From a virus (lineage: Duplodnaviria; Heunggongvirae; Uroviricota; Caudoviricetes), in the IMG/VR virus record IMGVR_UViG_3300005683_000050, positions 1 through 21,668 of that record: 21,668 nucleotides of DNA; one strand, 5' to 3'. Shown piece by piece: positions 1-15,885 of the stretch. The position numbers and the translations under genes are program-made. The notes beneath the pieces were generated by a model. That model saw only the letters and a program-made list of their open reading frames with translations. It did not search any database and had not been told where the DNA came from. Numbering within the stretch: position 1 is the first letter of the stretch; each line of letters starts with the position of its first letter.

Positions 1-51
1 GGAAACCTGGGGCATCTTAATATATATAATATATATCAACGCTACGCGTTG
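1..51. repeat. 51-bp exact direct repeat, copy 1 (may extend beyond the window start)
   Basis: ggaaacctggggcatcttaatatatataatatatatcaacgctacgcgttg is identical to 17485-17535; weaker similarity (ttttcaccga) continues for ~25 nt. Confidence 0.97.
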
Positions 52-84
52 ACTCTTTCTTTTTCACCGAGAAAGGAATGCCTC

Positions 85-113
85 TTGACAAAACCTCTGC
101 ATCGTTGTATAAT
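85..113 (+). promoter_or_regulatory. sigma70-type promoter for the tRNA-Cys/HNH transcript
   Basis: Perfect TTGACA (85-90), 17-nt spacer, TATAAT (108-113). Confidence 0.9.
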
Positions 114-119
114 TCTAAG

Positions 120-193
120 GACGACGGAACTCATTTGGTGATGGGACTCGTCTGCAAAACGAGTAAAATCGGGTTCGACTCCCGCCGTCGTCT
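120..193 (+). tRNA. tRNA-Cys (GCA), CCA not encoded
   Basis: Acceptor stem GACGACG(120-126)/CGTCGTC(186-192); anticodon arm CTCGT-ctGCAaa-ACGAG; T arm CGGG-TTCGACT-CCCG; discriminator U as expected for tRNA-Cys. Confidence 0.9.
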
Positions 194-209
194 CTCACAA
201 GGAGATATT

Positions 210-725
210 ATGAAAAACGTATTACTGTTGAACGCAGACTTCACGCCGCGCCGAGTAGTCACGCTTGAAAGGGCTATCTTGCTGTTGTTTCGGCAACGGG
301 CTGAACTTGTCGCAGCTAGGGATGGCGAAGTGTTGCGCTCTCCGTCTATGACAATGGAATATCCGTCTGTAATTCGGATGAAACAGTACCGCAATGTTCC
401 TCGTATGAAAGCAACGTGGAGGGCAAAAGAAGTACTGAAACGGGACGACTATACTTGTATTTACTGCGGGAAAAAACTAAAGTCCGACGAAGCGACTCTT
501 GAGCATATTTACCCAAAGTCAAGGTGCAAGAAGGAGGGCATTCCAGCAAACACTTGGGTAAATACGGCGTGTGCTTGCAAAAAGTGTCAAACCAAAAAGG
601 GCGACAGAACTATCGGTGAGTCTGGGATGAAGCTATTGTGGGAGCCGCGCATTCCACGCACGAATTACGTGGTCGTCTCGGACGATTGCGACGACACGTG
701 GAAGTACTACATAGAGGGACATTAA
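210..725 (+). CDS. HNH endonuclease (McrA-like family)
   Basis: RDDYTCIYCG, TLEHIYPKSR and WVNTACACKKCQTKKG motifs; SD AAGGAG just before ATG 210. The ORF-track 5' extension overlaps the tRNA and promoter. Confidence 0.88.
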   Translation: MKNVLLLNADFTPRRVVTLERAILLLFRQRAELVAARDGEVLRSPSMTMEYPSVIRMKQYRNVPRMKATWRAKEVLKRDDYTCIYCGKKLKSDEATLEHIYPKSRCKKEGIPANTWVNTACACKKCQTKKGDRTIGESGMKLLWEPRIPRTNYVVVSDDCDDTWKYYIEGH

Positions 726-727
726 AT

Positions 728-1006
728 ATGAAAACGTTATTGCTGTTTCTTTACCTTTCCAACGAAGATATGCCACACATGCAAAGCGTTGCTGATGGTA
801 TACAGGAACACCCCATTCTCAGTAATTCGCCGCTAAAGTTCGACAAGCACTACACGGTACTAACTCACCGTTCAGTCTTAACAACATTTTCGTTTTCTGA
901 AAGTGTGCATGGTACTCAGATATATAAATTTGAACAATGGTTCACGACACGTTGCGGATATAAGTTTCAAATATGTAAGTCTATGATTTGTGAGGAGAGT
1001 GAATAA
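728..1006 (+). CDS. hypothetical protein
   Basis: ATG 2 nt after the HNH stop; TAATG overlap with the next gene. Confidence 0.6.
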   Translation: MKTLLLFLYLSNEDMPHMQSVADGIQEHPILSNSPLKFDKHYTVLTHRSVLTTFSFSESVHGTQIYKFEQWFTTRCGYKFQICKSMICEESE

Positions 1007-1365
1007 TGGGATGGTATGGGTTTGACCTTGATGGCACTCTCGCTAGAGACGACAGGGAATGGGACGGTGGGATTGGAGAGCCAATCCCACCGATGATTGA
1101 AAATGTAAAGTTCTTGCTTTCGCACGGGATAGACGTGAGAATTTTTACCGCTAGGGTTTCAAAGGCAGACGGAGTAGGCGCGTCCTCTGGACTAGAGGCA
1201 ACCGACGAATTCATTGCCGAGCAGGAAAGAGTGATTCAGGAATGGTGCTTGAAACATATAGGAAAAGTACTCCCAGTAACCTGCATTAAGGACTTTCACA
1301 TGGTGTGTCTTTTTGACGACAGGGCATATCGAGTCATTAGGAACACTGGAGAGATAGTGTACTAA
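1006..1365 (+). CDS. HAD-superfamily phosphatase (polynucleotide 3'-phosphatase/nucleotidase-like)
   Basis: HAD motif I FDLDGTL, motif II FTAR, K, and motif IV FDDR. Confidence 0.8.
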   Translation: MGWYGFDLDGTLARDDREWDGGIGEPIPPMIENVKFLLSHGIDVRIFTARVSKADGVGASSGLEATDEFIAEQERVIQEWCLKHIGKVLPVTCIKDFHMVCLFDDRAYRVIRNTGEIVY

Positions 1366-1382
1366 ACGAAAGGCATACAAAC

Positions 1383-2162
1383 ATGCTGGATTTTCACAAA
1401 AAACATGAATTCTACAATAACAATGGATTCGACCTTAACGCACATTGGCTGTTTCTGGCAGAGAATGGTAGTGTGTCTCAAAACCTTAACACACCAGAAA
1501 GTAACCATGACTTTATTGGCGTCGTCATTCCGCCAATGGATTACTCTCTCGCACCATTCCACGATGAATATCAGATGCCATTCAAGCATTGGGAGTGGAA
1601 GGACGAAGATGGCTACTCTGAGGGTAAGTTCTATTCTCTACTCAGATTTGCGGAGTTGGTGTTGAACGGGAATCCCTCTGTGGTATCGGTTCTATGGAAC
1701 ATGCCGTATCACATGCAGACACACCCACACTTCAATGGATTCATAAACAAACGACACGCTCTCGTTTCGTATGATACAGTGCGGCACTGCATGGGATTTG
1801 CAAAGAACGAAGTCCTGCAAATGCAGAGGGTTACTAAGGAATCCTCTGCGAAACGAGTACAATACGTATCTCGTTTCGGTTATTACCCGAAGAGCGCAGT
1901 AGCGGCAATCCGCATGTTGAAGATGTCTATTGAGTTGTGCAACACTGGAGAGTTGACTGTATACAGAACGGGCGATAGAGAACAACTCATGGAGATTAAA
2001 CGCGGAGAGTGGCAGCTGAGTTCTGTTCTTCAATACTATGAGGAATTGAATGCCGAACTGCTTGACGTTGGCGTGGGGAAAGTGCTGAGGGAGCATGTTG
2101 ACAAGGATGTTGTTCGCGCGCTTGTCCTCGATATTTACAGAAGGAAATACAAGTGCCTCTAG
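1383..2162 (+). CDS. DNA polymerase beta-superfamily nucleotidyltransferase (YcgL-like)
   Basis: GS-x9-SNHD-x-xGV, NP.vv..L, K...A.IR.L and L.EIKRGE motifs; the first catalytic Asp appears as Asn. Confidence 0.75.
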   Translation: MLDFHKKHEFYNNNGFDLNAHWLFLAENGSVSQNLNTPESNHDFIGVVIPPMDYSLAPFHDEYQMPFKHWEWKDEDGYSEGKFYSLLRFAELVLNGNPSVVSVLWNMPYHMQTHPHFNGFINKRHALVSYDTVRHCMGFAKNEVLQMQRVTKESSAKRVQYVSRFGYYPKSAVAAIRMLKMSIELCNTGELTVYRTGDREQLMEIKRGEWQLSSVLQYYEELNAELLDVGVGKVLREHVDKDVVRALVLDIYRRKYKCL

Positions 2163-2518
2163 TTATTAACTTGGGATGGATGCCTCCCCAGTTGTTTCGT
2201 AACCGAGAGAGAACGGAACACTGGGGAGTCAGGCAGAAGTTCTCCAAACAATGTAGAGAAGATTCTCGGATAGCAACGCTTGCATCGTTAATGGAAAATC
2301 AGATATTCAGAATTCCAGATAATGATATACCAATTTCGATATATTTTTATCCGCCAGACAAAAGACGCAGGGATGTTGATGGAATGCACTCTGCAATAAA
2401 AGCTTCATTGGATGGAATAGCAGACGCTCTCGGTATTGATGACCAAAGATTCAATCCGACACAGTTGGTCAGATGTAATCCTCAAAAGGGCGGTAAGGTA
2501 AAGGTGATTATAGGGTAA
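2153..2518 (+). CDS. rusA: RusA-family Holliday junction resolvase
   Basis: FYPPDKRRRDVDG...K..LDG......DD signature; ~120 aa. Confidence 0.8.
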   Translation: MPLVINLGWMPPQLFRNRERTEHWGVRQKFSKQCREDSRIATLASLMENQIFRIPDNDIPISIYFYPPDKRRRDVDGMHSAIKASLDGIADALGIDDQRFNPTQLVRCNPQKGGKVKVIIG

Positions 2519-3000
2519 TGCCAAACGGATATGTTCACAATAGGTTCACAATCATACTCGGAGTTTTAACGATTCCAGCGTCGTTGCTGTTTGTAGACCC
2601 TCAGACCGCAATGTGGTATGGCGCAGGCGTAGCTCTGGGAATTATTATGACTCCAGACCTAGACCAAGCAGAAATACACTCTGTCACGCCTCAGCAAATG
2701 GTCGGAAACGCGCTTGGGGAGTTCGCGGAAAATATATATCGGGTTATATGGTTTCCGTATGGATTGTTTATATCGCACCGTTCTTGGGTAAGTCATTTTC
2801 CAGTGGTTGGAACTGCAATTCGTCTTTTGTACTTGTATGTATTGTATTGGTGTGCATGTTGGACTTTGCGGATAGAGCCGATTCCACTACAAGTTCCGAT
2901 TCCACTTGTTGTCGGACTCGTCATTGCCGATACACAACATTTCATCTTAGACCAGCTTCCTTTTTTCCGCGGAGAAAAGAAGCAACGAAAAAAAGGATAA
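2518..3000 (+). CDS. metal-binding membrane protein (DUF2227/YdjM-like putative hydrolase)
   Basis: MP.G..H, PDLD, HRSWVSH and H..LD motifs between hydrophobic segments. Confidence 0.7.
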   Translation: MPNGYVHNRFTIILGVLTIPASLLFVDPQTAMWYGAGVALGIIMTPDLDQAEIHSVTPQQMVGNALGEFAENIYRVIWFPYGLFISHRSWVSHFPVVGTAIRLLYLYVLYWCACWTLRIEPIPLQVPIPLVVGLVIADTQHFILDQLPFFRGEKKQRKKG

Positions 3001-3004
3001 CAAC

Positions 3005-3103
3005 GTGAAATTCAAAACTGATGATGTGATTCCGTTTCTGCTTATAATTAACATCATATTCTACGCACTTATTTTTGGGATTGCCTTGATTATTAGTAGT
3101 TGA
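3005..3103 (+). CDS. small membrane peptide (32 aa)
   Basis: Manual translation MKFKTDDVIPFLLIINIIFYALIFGIALIISS; GTG start with AAGGA upstream; below the ORF-track cutoff. Confidence 0.45.
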   Translation: MKFKTDDVIPFLLIINIIFYALIFGIALIISS

Positions 3104-3128
3104 CATTTGCACTGATTTGTGGTATACT
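3100..3128 (+). promoter_or_regulatory. sigma70-type promoter for the non-coding transcript
   Basis: TTGACA (3100-3105), 17 nt, TGg-TATACT extended -10 (3123-3128). Confidence 0.85.
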
Positions 3129-3132
3129 TACA

Positions 3133-3422
3133 GTAAGAGGCAAAGCTTAACAGCCGCTAGATAACTCCCGAACACAGGTAAAGGGATAGTCGGATACTTC
3201 GGCGTAGTAATGCCCCACCTGTTTACTCGTTAATTCCATGCGAGTATAAATAAAGGAAACTGTCTGCCACTTTGCATGTAGTATGGTACATTATCTGAAA
3301 ATAGCCACATAAGAAATATCGGGTATGTGGCAGACAAATCATCTCTACGTAATTGTGCGTAGAGTAAAAATAAGTGTAGGTCGTTTAATCTCGATAGGGG
3401 ATGCGAACGGGTCAACTTACAC
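3133..3422 (+). ncRNA. candidate structured ncRNA, family unassigned
   Basis: Lies between a promoter and a terminator with no + strand ORF; stems at 3174-3179/3217-3222, 3224-3230/3240-3246, 3261-3270/3327-3336, 3343-3351/3356-3364 and 3374-3380/3416-3422. Confidence 0.6.
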
Positions 3423-3423
3423 G

Positions 3424-3455
3424 AAACCCCACTACTGTTAGTGGGGTTTTTGTTT
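3424..3455. terminator. intrinsic terminator, probably bidirectional
   Basis: aaaccccacta-ctgt-tagtggggttt followed by a T-run, between convergent transcription units. Confidence 0.85.
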
Positions 3456-3660
3456 ATCTTATTTCTATGGATTTTTTCCCGACCTTGCAGAATGCCACTC
3501 CTCCGATATATTCTACAGTCCCTTTTCGTTTTGAACATACCGACCTGTTATATTGAATGCTTAAACTTGCCGCGTCCGAGTATGTTTTGAAACTGGAAAC
3601 CGCAAACAAGACAGTGCTTGCTAGTATCAATAGAATTGCAACTGAAATAATCTTAGACAT
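3454..3660 (-). CDS. small protein with N-terminal signal/TM segment
   Basis: Hydrophobic N-terminus, C-x3-G...C pair; SD GGAG upstream. Confidence 0.65.
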   Translation of the reverse strand: MSKIISVAILLILASTVLFAVSSFKTYSDAASLSIQYNRSVCSKRKGTVEYIGGVAFCKVGKKSIEIR

Positions 3661-3679
3661 TCCACACTCCGTTGTGTTT

Positions 3680-3713
3680 TGCTATGCCCCAATGGGTTAC
3701 TTATTTATTGGCT
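3680..3713 (-). ncRNA. candidate tigRNA-like guide unit 2 (34 nt, possibly degenerate)
   Basis: Minus strand AGCCA-ataaata-AGTAACCCA-ttggggcat-AGCA; shares an exact 14-mer with the 6605-6640 unit. Confidence 0.4.
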
Positions 3714-3746
3714 GTCACTCTGCGCTATTTGTGGGGCTATGTTTTT

Positions 3747-3884
3747 CTACTTTGCTCCGCCTGCAAGAACATTTCCGCAAGCACAACATCCTACACACAA
3801 AATGTCGCACTTCCCAGTAAGGTAGTTAAATGCAAACCATGCAAACTGAAACTTTGGTTGGTGTTTACATTCGTTGTTTTTCAT
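3747..3884 (-). CDS. small Cys-rich protein (45 aa), possible zinc ribbon
   Basis: Manual translation MKNNECKHQPKFQFAWFAFNYLTGKCDILCVGCCACGNVLAGGAK, directly downstream of a consensus promoter. Confidence 0.55.
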   Translation of the reverse strand: MKNNECKHQPKFQFAWFAFNYLTGKCDILCVGCCACGNVLAGGAK

Positions 3885-3893
3885 GTCAATTCA

Positions 3894-3922
3894 ATTATAC
3901 TGTATCCGTAGGAATTTGTCAA
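3894..3922 (-). promoter_or_regulatory. sigma70-type promoter
   Basis: TTGACA-17-TATAAT on the minus strand; the -35 contains the radical SAM TGA stop. Confidence 0.88.
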
Positions 3923-4806
3923 GACATTGAACGTACATGGTGAAACATTTCAATCACATCCATTCCAATGAATGAATACCTATTTGGAGACGTAGAGTTT
4001 TTGGCATATGCGCCAAGCACGGCATCAATGTAGAATGTATATTTTCCGTCGTCTCCCATGTACATTTCTTCCCACTGACTTTCTGTCAAGAATCTCTTCG
4101 GGTCAAGTTGTTCGATTGCCAAATTGTCAAACGATACCAATGAGACATTTTGCATAATCTCGCCCAACGAATCGTACAATCCGCCATCTAGGGTGTCGAA
4201 ACTCTTTCCGCGACCCCAATCCTTGTATCCGAGAATCAGAATCTTTGCGTTTTCTCCGTAGAGCATACGAATTGTGTCAATCGAGTGGACTCGGTTAATG
4301 ACATGCAAAATCGCGTTCGGCAAAAGTAAAACATCCAACAGTTTTTTGTTGACCGTTGTGTGTAGAGAGACCCCAATTCCATATATCAACTTATCATCCA
4401 CAAGGCGACAAAGCAAGTCCAGATACTTTGGCTGCTCGGTATGAAACTGGTTTACCGTAATGTTGCAAATCACACCGTCTTCTTTTTGCCGCCGCAAAAA
4501 TTCAATGAGGTCTGGGTGGTCAAGTGGGTTTCCTCCACCAATCGCCAGTTCTTGTCCAGCGATGAATCGCGGCAGTGTTAACAGGTCGGCGTGTTTTCCT
4601 CTTACGGTTGACATTTCGTGACACCACCTGCATCCCGCGTCACAATAGTTCGTTATCTTTAGGTCTATGTTTTCCGCGTGGTTCGGAATAAATGCATCGT
4701 GCTTTGTGACTCGGATTTTTGTTCCGTCGTCAAAGAGAATGACCCTGTAGTTCCCGTTTTTATATGTTGCTAATTGGTTCATGTTTATAAGGGGACGACT
4801 TTTCAT
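3919..4806 (-). CDS. radical SAM enzyme
   Basis: CxxxCxxC (CDAGCRWC), GGGNP, NITVN and GVS motifs; no C-terminal SPASM cysteines; start uncertain (4815, 4806 or 4782). Confidence 0.9.
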   Translation of the reverse strand: MKSRPLINMNQLATYKNGNYRVILFDDGTKIRVTKHDAFIPNHAENIDLKITNYCDAGCRWCHEMSTVRGKHADLLTLPRFIAGQELAIGGGNPLDHPDLIEFLRRQKEDGVICNITVNQFHTEQPKYLDLLCRLVDDKLIYGIGVSLHTTVNKKLLDVLLLPNAILHVINRVHSIDTIRMLYGENAKILILGYKDWGRGKSFDTLDGGLYDSLGEIMQNVSLVSFDNLAIEQLDPKRFLTESQWEEMYMGDDGKYTFYIDAVLGAYAKNSTSPNRYSFIGMDVIEMFHHVRSMS

Positions 4807-4817
4807 CGTCCCCAATC

Positions 4818-5093
4818 CTATCCGTCGCCGCGCACGACACTAATCGCAAAAACCTTTCCGTATGGAGTGTCAATTGATTTAATCTCCGTACCGTCATCGT
4901 CGGTCACAAACTCTTCAAATGTTATATACCGCCATTGATTCCCTTGTGGTTTTTCTACGAATTTCTTGTCAATTCTGTCGTAGACAATCTCACCATTAAC
5001 GAATCTAGTGTAATCATCCGACATCATCATTACAAGTGTATGGGTTGAGCTGGAGTTGGTCTCAAAGGCAGATGCCCTAACATTAACTCTCAT
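4818..5093 (-). CDS. FETNSSSTH-motif protein 3
   Basis: Begins MRVNVRASAFETNSSSTH; ATGA-coupled to the upstream paralog. Confidence 0.85.
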   Translation of the reverse strand: MRVNVRASAFETNSSSTHTLVMMMSDDYTRFVNGEIVYDRIDKKFVEKPQGNQWRYITFEEFVTDDDGTEIKSIDTPYGKVFAISVVRGDG

Positions 5094-5383
5094 TGGTACC
5101 CATACTTTCCAAAGACAACAATCTTTTCACCATTAGGAGTGGTGTATTGTTTCATATACGTTTCCATCATATCGTCTGCGAAAAACTGCTCGTATGTTTC
5201 TTGCTCTGAGTAATCGTCGTCTTGCGGTTCTTGCAGTTCTTCTAACTTGTCGCCGTAAAGACCATATACATATACTTTCTTCCCTTGCTTGAACTGGTCA
5301 AACTCATCCTGCGTACAAATTGTCAATGTGTGTGTTGAGCTGGAATTTGTCTCGAATGCACTTTTTCTAATCTGGTATTTCAT
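5090..5383 (-). CDS. FETNSSSTH-motif protein 2
   Basis: Begins MKYQIRKSAFETNSSSTH; SD AGGAG; ATGA overlap with the methyltransferase stop. Confidence 0.85.
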   Translation of the reverse strand: MKYQIRKSAFETNSSSTHTLTICTQDEFDQFKQGKKVYVYGLYGDKLEELQEPQDDDYSEQETYEQFFADDMMETYMKQYTTPNGEKIVVFGKYGYQ

Positions 5384-6045
5384 ATGTCCGTCTCCTGATA
5401 ATATATCATTTCGTTCTTGTATCCTCGCTGAGCGTACTGCCTCTTCAATGGTACAAACTCCATCCAATCAGCTTTATCGTTTTCGCAAACAATAACTTGT
5501 CCGAGACGAGACTTTGACCACTCTCCCAGCGCAGGGTAATCTATTTTATTGTGAACATATCTCCGTCCTCCGTGTTGGTACGGAGGGTCAATGAACCATG
5601 TAGCGACACGATTCTCCGCGTCCATGCCATCTCCGAGAATAATATCCCAGTGGCGTATGCGATACAGGTTTTCTGCTATCCATTTTTTTCTATTCTCCCA
5701 CCATGTTTCGGCGTTGGAATAGTTTCCAGTGGTCTTGTGCGGTTTAGGAGTTCCCCTGTTTCCGCAAAAAGATACGATGTCGTTTTCGGCTTCCGTTAGA
5801 TAGGCGTGTCTTTGAATTGTCTTCCTCTTAACCGAAGGGAGTGCAAGAATGTCTGACGGACTAGCTTCTTGAAGATATTTCCATACCCTGAAAAGTCTGT
5901 CGTACTTTTCATACAGTACGACATTCTTCTCGAAGTGTAACAGAGAATACTGTGCCGACCCAGCGAAAGGTTCAATCACGGTGTCGTATTTGGGCGCGGG
6001 ATACACGGACGCAACTCTTATCTTACTTCCGTAATAGCTAATCAT
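5380..6045 (-). CDS. DNA adenine methyltransferase (Dam/D12-class-like)
   Basis: SYYGSK, EPFAGSA (SAM-binding) and DPPY (catalytic) motifs; start set at MISYYGSK. Confidence 0.85.
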   Translation of the reverse strand: MISYYGSKIRVASVYPAPKYDTVIEPFAGSAQYSLLHFEKNVVLYEKYDRLFRVWKYLQEASPSDILALPSVKRKTIQRHAYLTEAENDIVSFCGNRGTPKPHKTTGNYSNAETWWENRKKWIAENLYRIRHWDIILGDGMDAENRVATWFIDPPYQHGGRRYVHNKIDYPALGEWSKSRLGQVIVCENDKADWMEFVPLKRQYAQRGYKNEMIYYQETDI

Positions 6046-6535
6046 GGTTGTCGTTGTCAATGACGATATACGACCCTGTTCCAAAAATAAGGCTTTCCAA
6101 TTGTCGTATAAAGTCTTCCTTTTTAATTTTTGTGTCAAGGATAAAGTCGAGAACTCCTATTGACTGGTGGTCAATATATCCAAGCGAGAACAATTCGTCG
6201 GGATTCTTTAGTGGAATAAAATTTACAGAATGACCAGTCTTTTCTTCTATCATTCCCATTATCCATTTATACTGCCTTAGATTTTTCATACGACTGATAA
6301 TGGAAGACGGATTTAATCTAAAATTATTCGCGAGAGCGACCTTGTATGCCATATGGGTAAGTATGTATGACAACTTTTCAGACGGAGTTCTCAGGACTTC
6401 GTATCCCCACCCAAACTCTCCAGGGTAGATGTCCGCGTCTACGAGATACTTTTTCGCGCAATCAGTCTTAATGGTTACGGAATGCGTGGAGCTTGAGTTG
6501 GTTTCAAACGTTCCGTTGCGAATTTGAATTTTCAT
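6038..6535 (-). CDS. FETNSSSTH-motif protein 1
   Basis: Begins MKIQIRNGTFETNSSSTH; also YIDHQS and C-terminal DNDNHD; first gene after a promoter. Confidence 0.85.
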   Translation of the reverse strand: MKIQIRNGTFETNSSSTHSVTIKTDCAKKYLVDADIYPGEFGWGYEVLRTPSEKLSYILTHMAYKVALANNFRLNPSSIISRMKNLRQYKWIMGMIEEKTGHSVNFIPLKNPDELFSLGYIDHQSIGVLDFILDTKIKKEDFIRQLESLIFGTGSYIVIDNDNHD

Positions 6536-6541
6536 ACTATG

Positions 6542-6570
6542 ATTTTACACTACATTTTGAATTTTGTCAA
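6542..6570 (-). promoter_or_regulatory. sigma70-type promoter, leaderless, for the FETNSSSTH/radical SAM operon
   Basis: TTGACA-17-TAAAAT, 6 nt, then ATG 6535. Confidence 0.85.
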
Positions 6571-6576
6571 GATGGG

Positions 6577-6604
6577 AAAAAACAACCATTAAGTAATGGG
6601 TTGT
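6577..6604 (-). terminator. intrinsic terminator after the 36-nt unit
   Basis: Minus strand acaacccatt-actt-aatggttgt followed by TTTTT. Confidence 0.55.
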
Positions 6605-6640
6605 CGCTGTAATACAATGGGTTACTTAAACACTACGGCA
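6605..6640 (-). ncRNA. candidate tigRNA-like guide unit 1 (36 nt)
   Basis: Minus strand TGCCG-tagtgttta-AGTAACCCA-ttgtattac-AGCG (5+9+9+9+4); TATAAT 5 nt upstream (6646-6651) and a terminator directly downstream; ~730 nt downstream of the TasA-like gene on the same strand. Confidence 0.55.
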
Positions 6641-6646
6641 ACACCA

Positions 6647-7084
6647 TTATATATCGGAATCATCGTCCTTGAATTCAATTCCCATACACTCGAACATATC
6701 GGCAATCAACGACGGGTACGCTAAAATAGCCCTATCACTCTGCCATGTTGACTCAGAATGATACACGTCTTTTTCCTCCATGAATCGGAAAAGTAAATCT
6801 GCAATCCTGCGGGCGTCCATATGGATTACAACTTTGTCGTTTTCATATCTTAGGCTAGACGACATGGAAACATTTATCACTGGAACTTGCTCTTGCGGAC
6901 TGTTGTCTGGAAACGACTCGTCTCGATAAAATAAATAAGATACGTTCCTTGCTGGGTCATGTGACGAACCGACAAACTCCGCCGTTGACGGAAGACCGCG
7001 CGTACACGTTCCAACTATCAGATTTCCCTCAGTTACAATGTCTTTCAACAATCTTCCGCCTACCATTACTGATTTTACTCTCAA
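6647..7084 (-). CDS. hypothetical protein
   Basis: 145-aa ORF, overlap-coupled to the upstream gene. Confidence 0.7.
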   Translation of the reverse strand: MRVKSVMVGGRLLKDIVTEGNLIVGTCTRGLPSTAEFVGSSHDPARNVSYLFYRDESFPDNSPQEQVPVINVSMSSSLRYENDKVVIHMDARRIADLLFRFMEEKDVYHSESTWQSDRAILAYPSLIADMFECMGIEFKDDDSDI

Positions 7085-7377
7085 TGTGGAAACTCTCCAT
7101 TCAGGATACCTCTATCTGTCAATTCATCAACAACGGTTTTAATCTCGACGCCAGACATTTCTGTTCCGCCAATAAGGTTGTACAGCATTTTCCACAAAAA
7201 CTCTATCAACTCAATATCGCTCATTTTGTTTTTTGTGGATATTGCGTCTGTATCTCCAGTGAAATTGTTTCCCGACTCTAGAATCTCACGTTTCCTCTTG
7301 TTTGTGTTATATATTTCTTTCTGAATGTAATCGTCGTATAGGTCGGCAATTTCCGATTCTGTCAAAGTGTCGTTCAT
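7081..7377 (-). CDS. hypothetical protein
   Basis: SD GGAGG; ATGA overlap with the TasA-like gene. Confidence 0.7.
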   Translation of the reverse strand: MNDTLTESEIADLYDDYIQKEIYNTNKRKREILESGNNFTGDTDAISTKNKMSDIELIEFLWKMLYNLIGGTEMSGVEIKTVVDELTDRGILNGEFPH

Positions 7378-8186
7378 CTCACCCTCCCAGCGATTTTTTT
7401 CTTTGTTCTATTGTCTGTCCATCCAAAATCTTGCGGATTATAAATGTGGATATGCCCATGCAACTCGGCATACGTTTTTGTTACTGGCAAGGACTCCATC
7501 TCTCTCCACACCGCCCACAGGTGTTGTAGAAAGATTTTGTTCATCTTACGCATTGCCGCAATAGAGGCATGTCCGCGTGTCCACCCGCGACTTAGATATT
7601 CCTCTTTCGACTCGTCATATATTTTGCGATACGGAGAATTCGACTTTATAAAGCTTTGTCCAACATTGTACATCACAGATTTTAATTCTGGATTAAATGG
7701 AATAACCCATCCGTACATTTTCCTGTCCCTGACCTTAACCAAGTGCCAGTCTGGGAGCGGGTTCACTTCAGAAAAAACCTTTTGTCTTTCTGAGTTCCAC
7801 CTGTACCCATTACGCGGCGACACCACCACCCCATCAGCGTCAGCCCAATAGTCGTACAGTCCAATACCAGCGTATCTCCACATCTTCGATACGGTTGTGC
7901 ATTCTTGTATGTCTATCTCTGCTACGATGCGAGCCGCAAGCATAGCTCCGACACCTTTTATGGATAATAGTCTATTAACAATCGGAATGCCAATCGCAAT
8001 CTCGATTATCTCTGCGCTGATTTCGTCCTCATTGTCTCCGAAAACCCTAGCCCACTTTTCAACTGTTGCCGCAGAGATGGAGTCCATCTCATCAGAGTGC
8101 GAAGAACGGTTGTCCATTGCAATCCTATACTTTTGCGTCATTTGGCGCATACGTATAAGTGCTTTGAGTGCTTGCATTTGATTCAT
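7374..8186 (-). CDS. tasA: IS110/Nop-fold RNA-binding protein without a nuclease domain (TIGR-Tas TasA-like)
   Basis: Helical N-terminus, LLSIKGVG..LAARIVAEIDI....VSKMWRYAG (IS110 C-terminal/Nop-like), FNPELK, H...AAMRKM.KIFL.HLW..WR..E.LP; no DEDD RuvC domain and no IS110 catalytic SG loop after YAG. Confidence 0.7.
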   Translation of the reverse strand: MNQMQALKALIRMRQMTQKYRIAMDNRSSHSDEMDSISAATVEKWARVFGDNEDEISAEIIEIAIGIPIVNRLLSIKGVGAMLAARIVAEIDIQECTTVSKMWRYAGIGLYDYWADADGVVVSPRNGYRWNSERQKVFSEVNPLPDWHLVKVRDRKMYGWVIPFNPELKSVMYNVGQSFIKSNSPYRKIYDESKEEYLSRGWTRGHASIAAMRKMNKIFLQHLWAVWREMESLPVTKTYAELHGHIHIYNPQDFGWTDNRTKKKIAGRVR

Positions 8187-8545
8187 GCTATTTTAATCCA
8201 CTTGGGCGAATATGTCGCGTTCAGTATCATGTACAACCCATCATCACATGATTGATAAAATGTCTTTTGGCCATTAAAAACTTCATTGACATATGTAGCG
8301 ATGTTTTCCATGTTGTTTGTAGCCGAAAGTCCATGATTGTCAACGTCGTCTGTCACTAGAACCGCAACTCCGCCAATCCCAGAAAGTATAATGGCATAAT
8401 ATATTCCGCCATTAACCGAAAATCTTAGAAGTACTTTGGTTGACCCTGATATACGAGCATGAGAAAGCAACACGTCTTCGTGCTTCTTTCTCATGCCGCG
8501 CGGGTCTGTGAAATTTAATTTTACTGGAGTAGTTTTTTCTTGCAT
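8183..8545 (-). CDS. hypothetical protein
   Basis: 120-aa ORF, ATGA-coupled to the TasA-like gene. Confidence 0.65.
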   Translation of the reverse strand: MQEKTTPVKLNFTDPRGMRKKHEDVLLSHARISGSTKVLLRFSVNGGIYYAIILSGIGGVAVLVTDDVDNHGLSATNNMENIATYVNEVFNGQKTFYQSCDDGLYMILNATYSPKWIKIA

Positions 8546-8814
8546 TCTTTAATGTGCCAGCAATTTTCTCGAATTTCTTTGGCAGAGTCTTTGGTGTGTT
8601 CAAAGTGTGGACATTCGCAACTCCACTCTTTTCCATCAAACGAAACAACGTATTGCATTCCGAGATTCGTATGGGAGTTAACAGTCCATGTCTGTTGTCG
8701 TGTGGTATCGAATACAATCCCTACTTCTTCGATATTAGAAATATCAACAACAGTGCCATGTGGCACTAGAAATGTAGTCCCGTTAACTGAAATCTTGACT
8801 TTAGCTGTATTCAT
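8521..8814 (-). CDS. SWIM-type zinc finger protein
   Basis: YVV......WSCECP...CWHI (CxC...CxH); SD AGGAG before ATG 8814. Confidence 0.75.
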   Translation of the reverse strand: MNTAKVKISVNGTTFLVPHGTVVDISNIEEVGIVFDTTRQQTWTVNSHTNLGMQYVVSFDGKEWSCECPHFEHTKDSAKEIRENCWHIKECKKKLLQ

Positions 8815-9022
8815 ATGCTCTCCTGACAAACTCCCTCCATACATTGTCTTTTATCACAAGGTCTCCCGTCATGGGGTCAACCTCATCGTTCCAAGATTCC
8901 CCGTCTTGAAGTACTGGTCTCACGCCGAACTGTATAGAGTCTATGTACGCAAAAGCCAGACGCGGTATGTGGGGGGGAAACCTTTGTGGTGCAACAATCT
9001 TTTTCTTTTTTCGCCTAGCCAT
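8801..9022 (-). CDS. small basic hypothetical protein
   Basis: Begins MARRKKKK; fills the operon gap with short overlaps. Confidence 0.55.
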   Translation of the reverse strand: MARRKKKKIVAPQRFPPHIPRLAFAYIDSIQFGVRPVLQDGESWNDEVDPMTGDLVIKDNVWREFVRRAYEYS

Positions 9023-9218
9023 CCTGCAATATCCCCTCAATGTTCGATTCGACCTTTTCGGACTGTACCAAAAAGTTGTCCTCGTCTACAATTCCGCCAG
9101 AGAATGTGTATTGACTAATCGCCTTTTCTCTGGCGTCAAGGTGTGATATTGCCAGAACCTCAGTTCGGTATAGTTGCACACATTCTCTGGTGTAAAATGT
9201 TACTACGTAATTATCCAT
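9015..9218 (-). CDS. hypothetical protein (leaderless)
   Basis: ATG 6 nt after a TACAAT -10. Confidence 0.65.
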   Translation of the reverse strand: MDNYVVTFYTRECVQLYRTEVLAISHLDAREKAISQYTFSGGIVDEDNFLVQSEKVESNIEGILQDG

Positions 9219-9224
9219 GACTAC

Positions 9225-9253
9225 ATTGTATTACAAAAATCAGCCTTTGTCAA
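9225..9253 (-). promoter_or_regulatory. sigma70-type promoter for the operon containing the TasA-like gene
   Basis: TTGACA-17-TACAAT. Confidence 0.85.
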
Positions 9254-11114
9254 CCCGTTGAATTGTCATGTCGAGATATTGTGTAGACAAGTCAATTCCT
9301 ATATATTTTCTGCCAAGTCTGCGAGAAACAACAGCAGTTGTACCACTTCCGTTAAATGGGTCTAAAACTGTATCTCCAATATAGCAGTATAGTTTAATTG
9401 CTCGGCGCGGCAACTCTTCTGGAAATGGAGCTGGATGCCCCTTGTATCTGCCAGATGGCATAACCCATACGTTGCGCGTCATCTTCTTCATAAACTCTTC
9501 TTTTTCAAGGTCGGTCTCCCCTTTCCATAACAATTTCGGAGACCCTTTGTGCGCGACAACAATAAACTCAGACAAAGAGCGACAAGACGGATTGCTTGGT
9601 GATAACCATGAGTTTCCACACCAAGTAAATTTCCCGTTACGCTCAACATATAGCGTCTTGTTCGGAACAGACACACAATACACCATCCCGTCATAATGGG
9701 ATTTATTCACCATGCTACTTTCTATCCAGTGTGAGCTCGTGCGGTGTAGGTGTATAAGATATACAGTCAGATTGCCGTTAAATGGCTTCCCGTTGTATAT
9801 ACGAGACTTGGATTTCCTTTCTTCCAACCTGAAACCAAATCCACTCATGCGGAACAGATTCAACATTCCGTCCCTAAGAGACTTAGACGCGGTAACGTAA
9901 TGCATCCAATTTCCATTTGGTAGGACACATCCATCGCCAAGCATTATCCATTCCATGAATATCTCACGCTGGCGGTAAGATAAACCAAGTACAAAGTCTG
10001 GGAACACCCTTTCGTTTTTGCTACCAAACTGCCTCATGTAGCTAGCCAATTGTTTTGAAGAAGTAACGAATTCCCCCTTTGACTGTTTATATCTGAATTC
10101 AAACGGAAGTCGGTCTAGTAGTTTCTTAACGGAATCAAGCGTCCTATCCTTAGATTGGTATATTGACACATTATAAGAGCCATGCTCTTCCGAGTAATGT
10201 ACATTGCCATCTGTTAGGAATATGCCAAGAAAAGCCAGCCAGTCGTCCATTTCTATCTTTATTTCTGACTGCGCCGACACAATAGACTTAGAAGTGCTTT
10301 TCCCGTAATCAACTATTGGCAGGGTAAAGTAACGAACCTCGTCGCCATCCATATTTTTACCAACAGAGTGAGGAATTGCAATACCATTCCAATCTATCTC
10401 TCCTGCGGACTCAACCCAGATATTCCCTTTTCCGTCTGTGCGCGCCATGTTGTGGTCTGGTGTTACGCATATATCAACGCGTTTGTTTCTTATGTGCAAC
10501 ATGTTTCCGCGAAATGGTTTTTCTATATAATCAAACGCCTTTTGGTATTCCACATTACCGCTAGGAGATAACGTCGCAAACAGGTCTCTCTCTGTAATAT
10601 CCCTGAAGTACTTTAGACCATCAAGCGTTAGCACCCTAGTTTTATCGTCGTAACATCCCCACGCCGTATTTCCCATCGAGAAATTCTCTTCGGAGTCAAC
10701 GGCATCGTCCGCATTGGATTTTACCCACGTAATTACTTCGCGCATGGTAAATCCAGCATCCACAATGCAGTTAATCGCATATGGTAAGAATGGAATATAC
10801 GCGTCGCCCTTCTTTTTGTTTCTGCCGTTTCCAGTGTTTGGAACATTCAGAACGATTCTGCCGCTTGGCGCAAGGACTCTATACGCCTCCCTTAACCATT
10901 TTGATGTAAACGCCCAGTACTCCTCTTGGTTCATATCGTCATTGTATCCGTCATACTCTACTCCGACATTATACGGAGGGGATGTTACGATAAGTTGTAT
11001 AGATTCATCTGGGATAAGGCTTAGATTTTTTGCGCTCCCTTTATATAGGGATAATCCATCTATTGCGTAGTGTTCTACCATTCCATCCGATTGATTATAG
11101 TTTTCAGGCATCAT
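9240..11114 (-). CDS. N4-C/N6-A DNA methyltransferase (beta class) containing an intein
   Basis: TSPPY, HPAPFP and VLDPFNGSGTT motifs separated by a 348-aa insertion. Confidence 0.92.
   Translation of the reverse strand: MMPENYNQSDGMVEHYAIDGLSLYKGSAKNLSLIPDESIQLIVTSPPYNVGVEYDGYNDDMNQEEYWAFTSKWLREAYRVLAPSGRIVLNVPNTGNGRNKKKGDAYIPFLPYAINCIVDAGFTMREVITWVKSNADDAVDSEENFSMGNTAWGCYDDKTRVLTLDGLKYFRDITERDLFATLSPSGNVEYQKAFDYIEKPFRGNMLHIRNKRVDICVTPDHNMARTDGKGNIWVESAGEIDWNGIAIPHSVGKNMDGDEVRYFTLPIVDYGKSTSKSIVSAQSEIKIEMDDWLAFLGIFLTDGNVHYSEEHGSYNVSIYQSKDRTLDSVKKLLDRLPFEFRYKQSKGEFVTSSKQLASYMRQFGSKNERVFPDFVLGLSYRQREIFMEWIMLGDGCVLPNGNWMHYVTASKSLRDGMLNLFRMSGFGFRLEERKSKSRIYNGKPFNGNLTVYLIHLHRTSSHWIESSMVNKSHYDGMVYCVSVPNKTLYVERNGKFTWCGNSWLSPSNPSCRSLSEFIVVAHKGSPKLLWKGETDLEKEEFMKKMTRNVWVMPSGRYKGHPAPFPEELPRRAIKLYCYIGDTVLDPFNGSGTTAVVSRRLGRKYIGIDLSTQYLDMTIQRVDKG
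9612..10655 (-). mobile_element. intein with LAGLIDADG homing endonuclease
   Basis: Starts CYDDKTRVLT (Cys154); block B VTPDHNM; LAGLIDADG-like LGIFLTDG and WIMLGDG; ends VYCVSVP...VERNGKFTWCGN followed by +1 Ser. Confidence 0.9.
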
Positions 11115-11350
11115 ATTTTGTTTGTGTCCCCGAAGTCTGCTGTTTTTTCATCCGTCAAAGAAATAAGATATTTCTTAATCATACTTCTTCCTAAAAATAT
11201 AAACCTTAGAAACGACATTTGATACAGCTCAGCGATTAAACGTTCCGCCTCAATTCTTTTATCTAGGTTCATCTCTACTTGTGTGAGTAACCGTTCCAAC
11301 AAGTTGTCTTTCATTCGACCACGACCCTTTCTCGACCACGAGTATTTCAA
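11111..11350 (-). CDS. hypothetical protein
   Basis: ORF coupled to both neighbours; start may be the internal ATG (MKDNLL). Confidence 0.6.
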   Translation of the reverse strand: MKYSWSRKGRGRMKDNLLERLLTQVEMNLDKRIEAERLIAELYQMSFLRFIFLGRSMIKKYLISLTDEKTADFGDTNKI

Positions 11351-11637
11351 CTGACGTATGCTACGATTTCGTACATTCCGCTATTCATTTTGTGCCAATG
11401 GAACACCAACATTGCATTGTCAACAAGAATTCCATTCAGTGAAAGGTCAAAGGTGCAACGACCATTATCTCCACACAAGATAACTCCATCGTCAAAGTCA
11501 ATAACACGCACACTGCTCTCGTTAAACTTCTCAGAGATAGCAGAAAACGGCAAGGTTGCCGAATATCCGATTTGGGACAGATACTTATTCAAGACTCGTC
11601 TTGTTTTGGAACTAATTTTCATATTGACTGCATCCAT
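11347..11637 (-). CDS. hypothetical protein
   Basis: 96-aa ORF, GAAGG upstream. Confidence 0.7.
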   Translation of the reverse strand: MDAVNMKISSKTRRVLNKYLSQIGYSATLPFSAISEKFNESSVRVIDFDDGVILCGDNGRCTFDLSLNGILVDNAMLVFHWHKMNSGMYEIVAYVS

Positions 11638-11702
11638 ATGCCTTCACTAACATCAGGAGCTCAAAGGCTCTCGGTAGATGTAGGACAATATGGAATACAG
11701 TC

Positions 11703-12044
11703 CTACGTAGAAAATCTTACCCTGCTTGTGTCAGAATGAGTTACAAACAGCTTTTGACCCCTGAAAGACTGAACCCTTTCTAGGAACTTGTTACGCTCTA
11801 TGATTCCAGCGATTTCAAATCTTCCTGCAACTCCGCTTAGGTCTCCTGGAAAAAGCAGTACGATATACTTTCCTTTGAGCTCGTCAAAGTCATCAACGAC
11901 AAGATATTCGCCCCTCTTTGGCTGAAATATCCCATAATAATCATCTCCCCAAATAGACCTTGCGATGTATTCGCATTGCTTTTGTGGAGTAGCGTTTTGT
12001 GCAATTTCGTCTTCGGACAAAAAAACAAATGACTTTAGCCTCAT
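11703..12044 (-). CDS. hypothetical protein
   Basis: 113-aa ORF, ATGA overlap, AAGGA upstream. Confidence 0.7.
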   Translation of the reverse strand: MRLKSFVFLSEDEIAQNATPQKQCEYIARSIWGDDYYGIFQPKRGEYLVVDDFDELKGKYIVLLFPGDLSGVAGRFEIAGIIERNKFLERVQSFRGQKLFVTHSDTSRVRFST

Positions 12045-12229
12045 TCGGATTCCTTAATCGGTATCTGCTCAAGCACAATGGTTAACAACAACAATACTAA
12101 CCCAAGAGGCATGATGACAATTGAAAGGGAAATGATAATAATTGTGTCTAGTGGGCTAAGCGAAATTTTACCCGCCAAGCGCATCCCAATCAACGCCCCA
12201 GCCAGAACCCACAATGCAAGAATGTTCAT
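12041..12229 (-). CDS. small membrane protein
   Basis: Two hydrophobic segments; downstream of a promoter. Confidence 0.6.
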   Translation of the reverse strand: MNILALWVLAGALIGMRLAGKISLSPLDTIIIISLSIVIMPLGLVLLLLTIVLEQIPIKESE

Positions 12230-12231
12230 TT

Positions 12232-12423
12232 TTATACTTTCTCATTATACGTTGCGCGTCGTTCTTTGTCAAGCGATTCGTACACAGCGACAAATACCCA
12301 ATCTGCGACCATGAACGTATTCTCTTCGGTCATTGGAACATCGCCAAGACGTTTTCTGTTTTCAACTGCATCTTTGCATCTTTCATAGATGCGACGTAGG
12401 TCTTTTTCTGAAATATCCATCAC
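12232..12423 (-). CDS. hypothetical protein
   Basis: 63-aa ORF, GTGA overlap. Confidence 0.55.
   Translation of the reverse strand: MMDISEKDLRRIYERCKDAVENRKRLGDVPMTEENTFMVADWVFVAVYESLDKERRATYNEKV
12244..12272 (-). promoter_or_regulatory. sigma70-type promoter inside the 3' end of the upstream gene
   Basis: TTGACA-17-TATAAT. Confidence 0.85.
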
Positions 12424-12659
12424 ATATTACTCGTAAGAATAGAAACAACAATGATAATCGCCCATCCTTGCAGTGGATTTATCTGATAGTATGGGAACGC
12501 AATGTTCCATAAAACAGTCACAAGGACGCTCATAAAAAAACCATAAAGCACCCCGCGCACAAATACGCGGGCAACCATCTTTGGAAATCCTTCAATAAAT
12601 ACAATTACGGTAGAGAGTAGATACGAAGTAATTTCACCAATAATCTTACCTAAAATCAT
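12420..12659 (-). CDS. small membrane protein
   Basis: Hydrophobic 79-aa ORF, ATGA overlap. Confidence 0.65.
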   Translation of the reverse strand: MILGKIIGEITSYLLSTVIVFIEGFPKMVARVFVRGVLYGFFMSVLVTVLWNIAFPYYQINPLQGWAIIIVVSILTSNM

Positions 12660-13099
12660 GTATACTTTTTCCTCATTTCGTTATCAAACTCGTCCATCTT
12701 TCTTTTATTACGAGTACGCCGAACCATTTTGTATCTATACACGTCTTCTTCTGAAATCACTTTCAGAAAATCTGGATTTCCGCCCAGAATGGATATAATA
12801 TCAAGAGCTTCGGACATTGTGAATTTATATAAAGACATGAACGGTTTGAGGTAAATGTAAGATACAGAGAACAGTATATAAGAGAAAGCAAAGTGGATAA
12901 GAACTTCAAAGAATAATATCCAAAAGCTTGCGCTTATAGAATCAACCTCAATGTTGAATGCCGAGAGAGCGAAAACGATAATTGTCCCACACGCCCAGTA
13001 AATGGCAATGCGCCTGAGAGACTTTAGTACGTAGAGAAGCGAAATCTCAATTCCTAGTAAAATGTCCATATGATTTGGTGCTGTCTGGACAGACAGCAC
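12656..13099 (-). CDS. membrane protein
   Basis: 2-3 hydrophobic segments and a basic C-terminus; start may be ATG 13069. Confidence 0.65.
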   Translation of the reverse strand: MLSVQTAPNHMDILLGIEISLLYVLKSLRRIAIYWACGTIIVFALSAFNIEVDSISASFWILFFEVLIHFAFSYILFSVSYIYLKPFMSLYKFTMSEALDIISILGGNPDFLKVISEEDVYRYKMVRRTRNKRKMDEFDNEMRKKYT

Positions 13100-13105
13100 T
13101 CTTGC

Positions 13106-13426
13106 CTAGAAGCTGGTTGTGGTGGCGAAAATGCTGTGTGTTTGAAATTGGAATACGGGTTCTTTATCTACCGCACGATACACATATACTGGACGCATGT
13201 TGTATTCGCGGACAAAACGCTCAACAGAGCCATCTCCAACCATTGGGGCGAGATATTGGTACGTAGCAACATACACATCCCAACCCTTAAAACAAAAGTT
13301 TGCATTTTTTTCTCGCAAACTTTCCTTTACCGCGTGAGACGTAAACTCTTCTCCGCTTGCCAGAAGCGAATCAATTGTGTCCCTAACAGCTTGACTGAGC
13401 TGTTCTTGACTTAGTTCGATAAACAT
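13106..13426 (-). CDS. hypothetical protein, possibly winged-helix-like
   Basis: SD AAGGAG; FT...VK..LR pattern followed by a beta-hairpin-like segment (fold is inference). Confidence 0.7.
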   Translation of the reverse strand: MFIELSQEQLSQAVRDTIDSLLASGEEFTSHAVKESLREKNANFCFKGWDVYVATYQYLAPMVGDGSVERFVREYNMRPVYVYRAVDKEPVFQFQTHSIFATTTSF

Positions 13427-13446
13427 AGAAGATTCTCCTTTTCTGC

Positions 13447-13475
13447 ATTATATCACAATTGTCTGGATTTGTCAA
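13447..13475 (-). promoter_or_regulatory. sigma70-type promoter
   Basis: TTGACA-17-TATAAT with TGn extension; the -35 contains the PARP stop. Confidence 0.88.
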
Positions 13476-14626
13476 TTCCAACTTCCAATAATTAAGTGAG
13501 TAATTGTTACCTGCTCGTTCCTGTAAACGATAAATTCATTTTGGTGGAGTCCTCTGCCGTGAATCTTTGAGTGACCCTTTTTTCCCCACACAGAGTTGTA
13601 TCCCTCTGGAGCTGCCCTGTATCCGTTCCCGTATTCAGAAACATATTGATTGCCAAGAGCAAAGTCACACAAGAGCATTACCTGTGGAGACCCGTATCCC
13701 ACTGTCTGGGAAGAGTACGAACACGACTTTCCCATATAGTCAGCCCCGTAAATTCCGAAACCGAAATATCCAGACTTGGACAGCTCAACCTTTAGTCCGC
13801 CGTTCAAGATATGAGCAACGTTTCCAATTGAAGTTCCGTGAAATAATCTTTCAACATTTCCAATAGAACTTAAAAAACGACCTCTCTCGCTTGGAATGCG
13901 AACACTATAAACATTTCGGACACGGATATTGTGACTTATCGGGTCTGACTTGTCGCGCATTTTTGACTTACGAATCACCCACTCAAAATCTGGGTGACTC
14001 TCTGGAATTTCCTCGATTTCAGCTCCAATTAAGTCAACCATAGAGCCGTGAACTTTTACAGCTTCTTTCGAGCGAATTGCCGATTCTATCTGTGCAATGC
14101 GATTCCGTTGTTCGACAATATCAAATGAACGTACAACATCCGAAACGTTGATACGTCTTGGAAGCTGTGTGGGGATTGTTGTATAAAATCTTTGGACAAG
14201 ACTCTGACTTGGAAATCCTCGCATCTCATCAAGGATTAAACGCGCCTCCGCCATTTGTTCGACACTAATTGAACCCAAGTCGGTAGCAAGATAGCTGTAA
14301 ATGGAACGATTTGCCTGCTCCATCAACATTTTGACTAATTGACCAACGCTTGTAGAAAAGTCAATCGAGCCACTTGCGACCACGACACTCTGACCCATCT
14401 TAACTTCCCTATATCCATCTTTTTCCTGAGAACGAATCTTGGAGTCAAGTTGTGATTGGGTCATTGCCTTTGTAATACCACTGGAGTACGAACCATCTTC
14501 CTTGACACGTCCCCACCCAAAGCGAACAGAAAGGACGCCGTTTTTCATTTCTTCGGCAGTAAATCCCCAATACTTGTTAGAATTTAATTCAAGGTCTGTT
14601 AAGACCCACTTTCTAGTTATCCCCAT
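13472..14626 (-). CDS. WGR-domain PARP-family ADP-ribosyltransferase
   Basis: SNKYW...WGRV (WGR), FYTTIP (PARP regulatory helical domain), LFHGT, GYFGFGIY, KSCSY and NEFIVY (H-Y-E triad). Confidence 0.88.
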   Translation of the reverse strand: MGITRKWVLTDLELNSNKYWGFTAEEMKNGVLSVRFGWGRVKEDGSYSSGITKAMTQSQLDSKIRSQEKDGYREVKMGQSVVVASGSIDFSTSVGQLVKMLMEQANRSIYSYLATDLGSISVEQMAEARLILDEMRGFPSQSLVQRFYTTIPTQLPRRINVSDVVRSFDIVEQRNRIAQIESAIRSKEAVKVHGSMVDLIGAEIEEIPESHPDFEWVIRKSKMRDKSDPISHNIRVRNVYSVRIPSERGRFLSSIGNVERLFHGTSIGNVAHILNGGLKVELSKSGYFGFGIYGADYMGKSCSYSSQTVGYGSPQVMLLCDFALGNQYVSEYGNGYRAAPEGYNSVWGKKGHSKIHGRGLHQNEFIVYRNEQVTITHLIIGSWN

Positions 14627-14632
14627 GTCTGA

Positions 14633-14661
14633 AATATATCATATCTCTTGTTTTTTGTCAA
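14633..14661 (-). promoter_or_regulatory. sigma70-type promoter, leaderless, for PARP
   Basis: TTGACA-17-TGa-TATATT, 6 nt, then ATG. Confidence 0.75.
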
Positions 14662-15676: not shown

Positions 15677-15679
15677 ATT

Positions 15680-15850: not shown

Positions 15851-15856
15851 GCCTGC

Positions 15857-15885
15857 ATCATATCTTATATCTTTTGATTTTTCAA
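15857..15885 (-). promoter_or_regulatory. sigma70-type promoter, leaderless
   Basis: TTGAAA-17-TATGAT, 6 nt, then ATG. Confidence 0.6.

Follow-up and report, generated by a model that had tools for sequence, protein, structure and literature searches.

The stretch of DNA analysed here (the window, 21,668 nt, one strand) carries in a gap between convergent genes a plausible but unproven phage gene for a non-coding RNA of approximately 320 nt without known relatives. The unit is bounded by a promoter of a class that is abundant in the genome and by an intrinsic terminator; it lacks any coding signal, folds with an energy in excess of that of shuffled sequences and matches no known RNA family. 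The reading preferred here, to which a probability of roughly 0.45 is attached, is that of a non-coding RNA gene that would be transcribed independently and whose product would act in trans by binding protein, as a scaffold or a decoy, in connection with an RNA-repair programme. The genomic context is the sole clue to function and is circumstantial. The main rival is an evolutionarily young sequence that has no function of its own and lies between a real promoter and a real terminator. The coordinates of the features are collected in Table 1.

The window constitutes the first 21.7 kb of a 149,668-bp record that is rated 100% complete. The size of the record and its 46 tRNA genes, which cover nearly all amino acids (ARAGORN, whole genome), bear out the phage origin proposed in a preliminary description of the sequence, and we infer the virulent lifestyle of a large tRNA-rich phage. 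The main tRNA cluster is located at 110-147 kb and the RtcB gene at 117,035-118,135. The promoters and ribosome-binding sites look Firmicutes-like. One tRNA stands alone under its own consensus promoter at window positions 119-194: ARAGORN calls it tRNA-Cys (GCA), and its top Rfam score is with the tRNA-Sec model (54.6 bits). The RNA gene lies 3 kb from this tRNA. The RNA region is identical in a second assembly of the same phage, a Logan contig of SRR2106649. That contig (17,514 nt) corresponds to window positions 22-17535 and extends from inside copy 1 to the end of copy 2 of a 51-bp direct repeat. The SRR2106649 assembly graph breaks at this repeat, which alone is no evidence for a circular excised form.

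Table 1. Features of the RNA unit and of the genes around it (window positions)
Feature	Position	Strand	Remarks
HAD-type ORF, 119 aa, DxDGT HAD motif	1006-1365	+	weak match to polynucleotide-kinase phosphatase, phrog_415, 2e-6
RlaP-like nucleotidyltransferase	1383-2162	+	phrog_388, 3.6e-31; Pfam RlaP slightly below cut-off
32-aa hydrophobic ORF, GTG start, AAGGA 8 nt upstream	3005-3103	+	neighbour; last ORF of the upstream operon
Promoter, sigma-70-type, TTGACA-17-TATACT, extended -10 TG	3100-3128	+	11/12 positions matched, plus TG
Predicted transcript, ~320 nt	3135-3455	+	start from the -10 box, end from the terminator U-run
5' third	3135-3256	+	one firm hairpin, 3224-3230/3240-3246 (P 0.95), with 9-nt loop UAAUUCCAU
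Central domain, mutually exclusive helices	3261-3336	+	inverted repeats I6 and I9; z -2.9 alone
9-bp hairpin, AUUG loop	3343-3364	+	P 0.97; on the - strand also listed as terminator-like
3' domain, long hairpin of 8 + 5 + 5 bp	3374-3422	+	P 0.96-0.99
Intrinsic terminator, head-to-head (shared) with the convergent 68-aa gene	3423-3455	+	terminator scan; P 0.93
68-aa ORF, N-terminal hydrophobic segment, GGAG ribosome-binding site	3454-3660	-	convergent neighbour, ends at the shared terminator

The promoter that precedes the RNA is one of 104 near-consensus sites (TTGACA-17-TATAAT) in the genome, nearly all of which have a 17-nt spacer and which are densest, on both strands, at 33-65 kb. As block-shuffled genomes contain only 3-6 sites of equal quality, the promoter at 3100-3128 is no chance match. 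The stop codon of the 32-aa ORF lies within the -35 box of this promoter, and no terminator is present between that ORF and the RNA gene. At the opposite end a 12-bp G+C-containing stem (3423-3450) is followed by TTTTTGTTT, and the convergent 68-aa ORF ends 4 nt from this stem. Both signals had been described as strong, a judgement with which the promoter match and the 12-bp stem with its U-run agree. The original length estimate of ~290 nt, however, has to be revised: the -10 box puts the start near 3135 and the RNA is therefore ~320 nt long. It is the longest of 13 promoter-to-terminator units in the genome that are devoid of an ORF of at least 45 aa. The unit occupies a convergent gap, with a + strand operon upstream and the - strand 68-aa ORF downstream; past the terminator there is only this convergent gene and no same-strand target for a riboswitch or cis-regulatory leader.

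In the mechanism that we propose, host RNA polymerase would begin at ~3135 at the near-consensus promoter and halt at ~3455 at the intrinsic terminator, where read-through from the upstream operon would stop as well. Because read-through shares its terminator, the unit resembles a small RNA that is transcribed from a promoter inside an operon, at its 3' end. The enterobacterial sRNAs MicL and DapZ arise in this way. In such sRNAs, as here, the last ORF reaches into the promoter, the terminator is held in common with the operon and none intervenes, but the phage RNA is three to four times longer.

The + strand of the unit folds at -99.4 kcal/mol, against -77.8 ± 4.9 kcal/mol for dinucleotide shuffles (z -4.4); for the - strand z is -3.3. 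The minimum free energy fold contains 101 pairs, 14 of which are G-U pairs that exist only on the + strand, and these favour the + strand as the RNA. At least five helices had been proposed, and five are indeed predicted at a pair probability above 0.9 (3224-3230/3240-3246, 3343-3351/3356-3364, 3374-3381/3415-3422, 3382-3386/3405-3409 and 3388-3392/3398-3402), in addition to the terminator. The 5' third taken alone is no better folded than chance (z -0.75): outside its firm hairpin it is poorly defined and in one fold it pairs over a long range with 3260-3297 (P ~0.5). In the central domain two partners are available to the segment 3324-3336 (UAUGUGGCAGACA): pairing with 3261-3270 gives a 10-bp helix (P 0.45), and pairing with 3304-3311 an 8-bp hairpin (P 0.53). 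The alternative pairing put forward for GUGGC at 3327-3331 is thereby recovered; the two global folds are isoenergetic, at -99.3 and -99.4 kcal/mol. The other alternative put forward, that of CTTAC (3416-3420) with a GTAAG at the 5' end, is weak, as CTTAC is held in a helix of P 0.96; the GTAAG in question (3133-3137) straddles the predicted start site. What is left of the suggested conformational switch is a pair of isoenergetic predicted folds. Such pairs are common in sequences of 300 nt, and in ensemble diversity the whole RNA does not stand out from its shuffles. The segment 3340-3424 reaches z -4.2 alone, and the long hairpin of the 3' domain displays a 5-nt bulge (GGUCA), a 1x2 internal loop and a GAUAG loop. 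The RNA would thus be modular, with a rigid 3' half, in which the terminator follows the 9-bp hairpin and the long bulged one, and with 5' and central parts that may adopt two folds.

The statement that the + strand is free of ORFs holds in the sense that none is credible. The largest internal one, of 38 aa (3325-3441), runs into the terminator stem and lacks a Shine-Dalgarno sequence, whereas the neighbouring genes have a clear GGAG or AAGGA. No ORF of the RNA region is preceded by a ribosome-binding site. Pfam and PHROGs give no match for any ORF on either strand of the region, and its comparison by blastx with the complete ORF set of the phage returns nothing.

Comparison by Infernal with Rfam 15 (4227 families, which include 6S, RNase P, SRP, tmRNA, group I and II introns, HEARO, ROOL, GOLLD, raiA and riboswitches) yields no match at the gathering score. 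With E up to 10, on 601 nt, only chance matches driven by the terminator appear, such as the rimP leader (29 of 47 bits) and EF3314_EF3315 (22 of 100 bits), and the initial failure to assign the RNA to a known family thus stands. ARAGORN, applied to the window and to the whole genome, detects neither a tRNA nor a tmRNA at 3135-3455 and no tmRNA anywhere in the genome. String searches of the RNA reveal no T-loop, metazoan Ro-binding helix, box C or ACAGCAA, and the Ro-helix strings GGUCCGA and UUGACU are equally absent. No direct repeats are present within 3135-3455, where a TIGR guide array would have repeated units of ~36 nt. The RNA belongs to no described family; stand-alone non-coding RNA genes in tRNA-rich phages are already known. 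The T4 species 1 and 2 RNAs (rnaC/rnaD), 120-140 nt in length, are processed from a tRNA cluster transcript. Like the candidate described here, these stable T4 RNAs are small, have no assigned function and belong to a phage with its own tRNA genes; the present RNA, by contrast, has its own promoter and is well removed from the main tRNA cluster (110-147 kb).

Homologues were sought by sequence, by synteny and with covariance models. Neither a homologue nor a paralogue came to light in the collections searched, which returned only the window itself. At the sequence level, blastn was negative for INPHARED phages and for PLSDB plasmids, as were blastn and nhmmer for 80 IMG/VR loci that surround homologues of the radical-SAM gene, and so was a scan of IMG/VR and GTDB genomes for five 20-mers of the RNA. 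BLAST against 50 whole related phage records was negative too, a search of little power as a 1-kb control taken from another part of the genome likewise drew a blank. A covariance model of the 3' half (R1) recovers only itself among 49 related records and the phage's own genome, and in the contigs L002 and L005 gives only weak hits inside genes. A model of the central domain (R2) picks out genome positions 47458-47538 with 28.7 bits; this candidate paralogue falls within the final part of a 142-aa ORF and at the nucleotide level scores the same as the chance maximum for the whole genome, and it was taken as chance. No motif is common to the RNA and the other ORF-free units of the genome. The lineage is thinly sampled, the best radical-SAM homologue being 56% identical, and a search for synteny in IMG/VR and JGI metagenomes, with the radical-SAM and DUF2227 proteins as anchors, uncovered only one other member.

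This sole syntenic relative, which is present in the ENA samples ERZ724522 and ERZ724544, is a 7.8-kb contig (L002/L003), identical to the window phage at 64% in DUF2227, 62% in RusA and 69% in the HNH endonuclease. Its gene order is HNH, an RNA of ~240 nt, Ro60 (TROVE and vWA domains), RlaP, RusA, DUF2227 and a terminator. At the site syntenic to the RNA described here, DUF2227 is followed directly by the terminator and the RNA is absent; past the cassette there is an unrelated 112-aa ORF in place of the segment 3000-3680. Only the window phage has this orphan segment of ~680 bp, which comprises the 32-aa ORF, the RNA and the 68-aa ORF. The ~240-nt RNA of the relative (L002:6962-7245, - strand), which lies between a consensus promoter and a terminator of its own, folds with z -4.7 and has a 5' hairpin of 70 nt. 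It contains a tRNA-like module with a branched insert in place of the anticodon arm; the module scores 37 bits with the tRNA model and is not found by ARAGORN. An Rfam scan at E up to 0.1 gives no match of this RNA to a Y-RNA family; located upstream of Ro60 (L002:5369-6982), it is likely to be a phage Y RNA of unusual build. The window phage has neither an RNA of this type nor Ro60 at this place, and carries a 92-aa ORF and the HAD-type ORF at the front of the cassette instead. Genes for Ro60, TROVE, vWA_Ro60 and DUF2828 are missing from the whole 149.7-kb genome: PF05731, PF25045 and PF11443 find no match genome-wide, and the controls responded for PF05731 and PF25045, not for PF11443.

Homology between the two RNAs was considered and rejected, as their similarity, at z 3.4-4.4 with the 3' end and terminator included, drops to z 0.2-0.9 without them. 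A lone compensatory change in one hairpin is too little to establish homology, and the present RNA is found at the opposite end of the cassette from the Ro60-linked RNA. Y RNAs (YrlA/YrlB, Yrn1) with their partner Ro60/Rsr (Chen et al. 2014, PMC4201824) resemble it in being encoded by a stand-alone structured RNA gene in a repair set that contains RlaP. The phage RNA differs from a Y RNA in that it has no T-arm or D-arm and, up to E 10, matches none of the models for the tRNA clan or for Y RNAs, in that no Ro60/Rsr (TROVE) gene is adjacent in this phage, and in being ~3x longer than YrlA. As to an end stem of the Y-RNA type, only the 5-bp GTAAG/CTTAC pairing would be possible, which straddles the predicted start and competes with the helix of P 0.96.

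The genes upstream of the RNA are arranged on the same strand in the order tRNA-Cys (own promoter), HNH endonuclease, 92-aa ORF, HAD-type ORF, RlaP-like gene, RusA and DUF2227. The HAD-type ORF stands where the relative has Ro60; with RlaP alongside it, the 1-3 kb block amounts to a cassette for RNA end healing. To our knowledge, RusA and DUF2227 have no RNA role. No family match was obtained for the 32-aa ORF, and no homologue of the 68-aa protein exists among 5.8 billion proteins. Also on the - strand, just downstream of the radical-SAM operon, a 45-aa Cys-rich ORF (...CDILCVGCCACG...; window 3747-3884) begins ~3 nt past the predicted start of a perfect promoter (3922-3894) and would for this reason be leaderless; it is absent from the relative and may encode a small modified peptide or nothing. 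RlaP adds nucleotides to damaged RNA 3' ends prior to ligation (PMC12776372). In large phages it is found with RNA ligases and sometimes with Ro60 (PMC7824862), and phage RNA-repair sets include Ro60 with Y RNAs as well as RlaP (PMC7824862, PMC4201824).

Readings tested against these data (ALTERNATIVES) included a decayed gene, a protein remnant, antisense control, homology to the Ro60-linked RNA and a paralogue. The main rival, which we consider rather unlikely, holds that a functionless, lineage-specific insertion lies between a real promoter and a real terminator as transcribed debris or a cis-acting spacer, and would at most shield the convergent operons from each other or interfere with transcription of the 68-aa gene. 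It draws on the uniqueness of the segment 3000-3680, in whose place the relative has a terminator and an unrelated 112-aa ORF, on the fact that conservation of the RNA was found nowhere in the collections searched, and on a 5' third structured at chance level within an ensemble that is not unusually well defined. Against it speak the z values of -4.4 for the whole RNA and -4.2 for its 3' half, the strand asymmetry with its 14 G-U pairs, the cost of maintaining a near-consensus promoter for a useless product, and the lack of any detectable phage-protein remnant in the region. Two specific origins for such debris were rejected: a decayed copy of the 68-aa gene, suggested by a 30-aa alignment with one stop (tblastn E 0.03 in a tiny database), has a score that 131 of 1000 shuffles equal, and a search for traces of the 112-aa ORF of the relative, or of phage proteins in general, found nothing. 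That the unit is instead the mRNA of a very small protein such as the 38-aa ORF, with the structure serving as a long regulatory leader, is highly improbable. Both competing helices do cover its AUG (3325-3327), but no Shine-Dalgarno sequence precedes this codon while the neighbours' sites are strong, the ORF ends within the terminator stem and no family match supports it.

Regulation by base pairing appears improbable in both of the forms considered. Type I antitoxin RNAs such as Fst/RNA II, TxpA/RatA and BsrG/SR4 are encoded convergently with small membrane toxins, and an antisense or type I toxin-antitoxin-like RNA that controls the flanking 32-aa or 68-aa protein would share with them the convergence with a gene for a small hydrophobic protein and the common bidirectional terminator, here in a phage-borne setting. 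The geometry recalls that of Fst/RNA II and TxpA/RatA: both neighbours are small and have a hydrophobic segment, the transcripts of the RNA and of the 68-aa gene would overlap over the ~35-nt terminator, and two short complementarities (I3 and I4) link 3355-3376 to the 32-aa ORF at 3057-3076. However, I3 and I4 are in different registers and cannot join in one duplex; the windowed duplex energy with the 32-aa mRNA (-19.0 against -16.9 ± 2.1) is reached by 5 of 40 shuffles and that with the 68-aa mRNA by 23 of 40. Complementarity to the neighbouring mRNAs is confined to the overlap at the shared terminator and elsewhere is at chance, no known toxin family is represented by the 32-aa or the 68-aa ORF, the absence of homologues of the 68-aa protein means that no toxin family is implied, and known antitoxin RNAs are much shorter and less structured than this RNA with its several domains. 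The odds are equally low for an sRNA that would pair with mRNAs of the host or the phage through exposed stretches that are C-rich or lie in loops, such as CUCCC at 3165-3169 or the loop UAAUUCCAU at 3231-3239. An own promoter, a terminator with a U-tail, C-rich stretches that are single-stranded in one fold and the likeness to sRNAs made from operon 3' ends are in its favour; yet 320 nt with six helices is long for seed-pairing, and pairing to the neighbouring mRNAs is not significant.

For the preferred reading, that of an independent non-coding RNA gene, the proposed mechanism is that the RNA would bind protein in trans, as a scaffold or decoy, within a programme of RNA damage and repair. 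Such a role is preferred because the gene ends the HAD-phosphatase-like/RlaP/RusA/DUF2227 cassette and because the cassette of the relative carries Ro60 and a structured RNA; RtcB and the 46 tRNAs of the genome belong to the same favourable context. Against the reading count the failure to find homologues or paralogues in the collections searched, the absence of the RNA from the syntenic site of the relative, the lack of Ro60-type genes in the genome and of a tRNA-like module, Ro-binding helix sequence or ACAGCAA handle in the RNA, the chance-level folding of the 5' third, and the presence in the cassette of RusA and DUF2227. Large phages that possess their own tRNA sets and RNA-repair enzymes compete in an arms race with tRNA-cutting nucleases of the host; beyond Y RNAs, little is known of the RNAs that take part in this contest. 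A more specific and speculative version, to which we give little credence, sees in the RNA a Ro60-independent counterpart of a Y RNA: the module of Ro60 and tRNA-like RNA would have been exchanged for one of HAD phosphatase-like gene and RNA, the latter acting as scaffold or decoy for RlaP, RtcB or a host nuclease in the contest over tRNA cleavage, while the two states of its central domain might serve to sense damaged ends or to present them.

Further ORF-free units of the genome were noted alongside. One of ~228 nt (G000:C1:38960-39222, - strand) combines a 5' hairpin with an embedded tRNA-like element at 39023-39090, which scores 39.6 bits with the Rfam tRNA model and is not called by ARAGORN; the layout is like that of the Ro60-linked RNA of L002, without clear sequence similarity. 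Convergent with it is a 168-nt unit on the + strand (G000:C1:38318-38520) with a folding energy of -58.7 kcal/mol. The units G000:C1:43410-43567 and 60335-60500, both on the - strand, have a common 5' motif (...GGnCAGGAGUCCGnACCAGC...) and could form a two-member sRNA family; neither has an Rfam match at E up to 0.05. In the unit G000:C1:56255-56462 (- strand) a 15-nt unit (GGCUCGUGGUCGAAA) is repeated four times in tandem, which looks like a multi-site protein-binding or sponge RNA. As the genome contains several such promoter-to-terminator units, the lineage may be unusually rich in small RNAs.

At present the RNA is a single unconserved candidate from a poorly sampled phage lineage. Should it be real and act together with the repair cassette, it would add a new RNA partner to that system and exemplify the exchange of one RNA-protein module for another in a conserved cassette.
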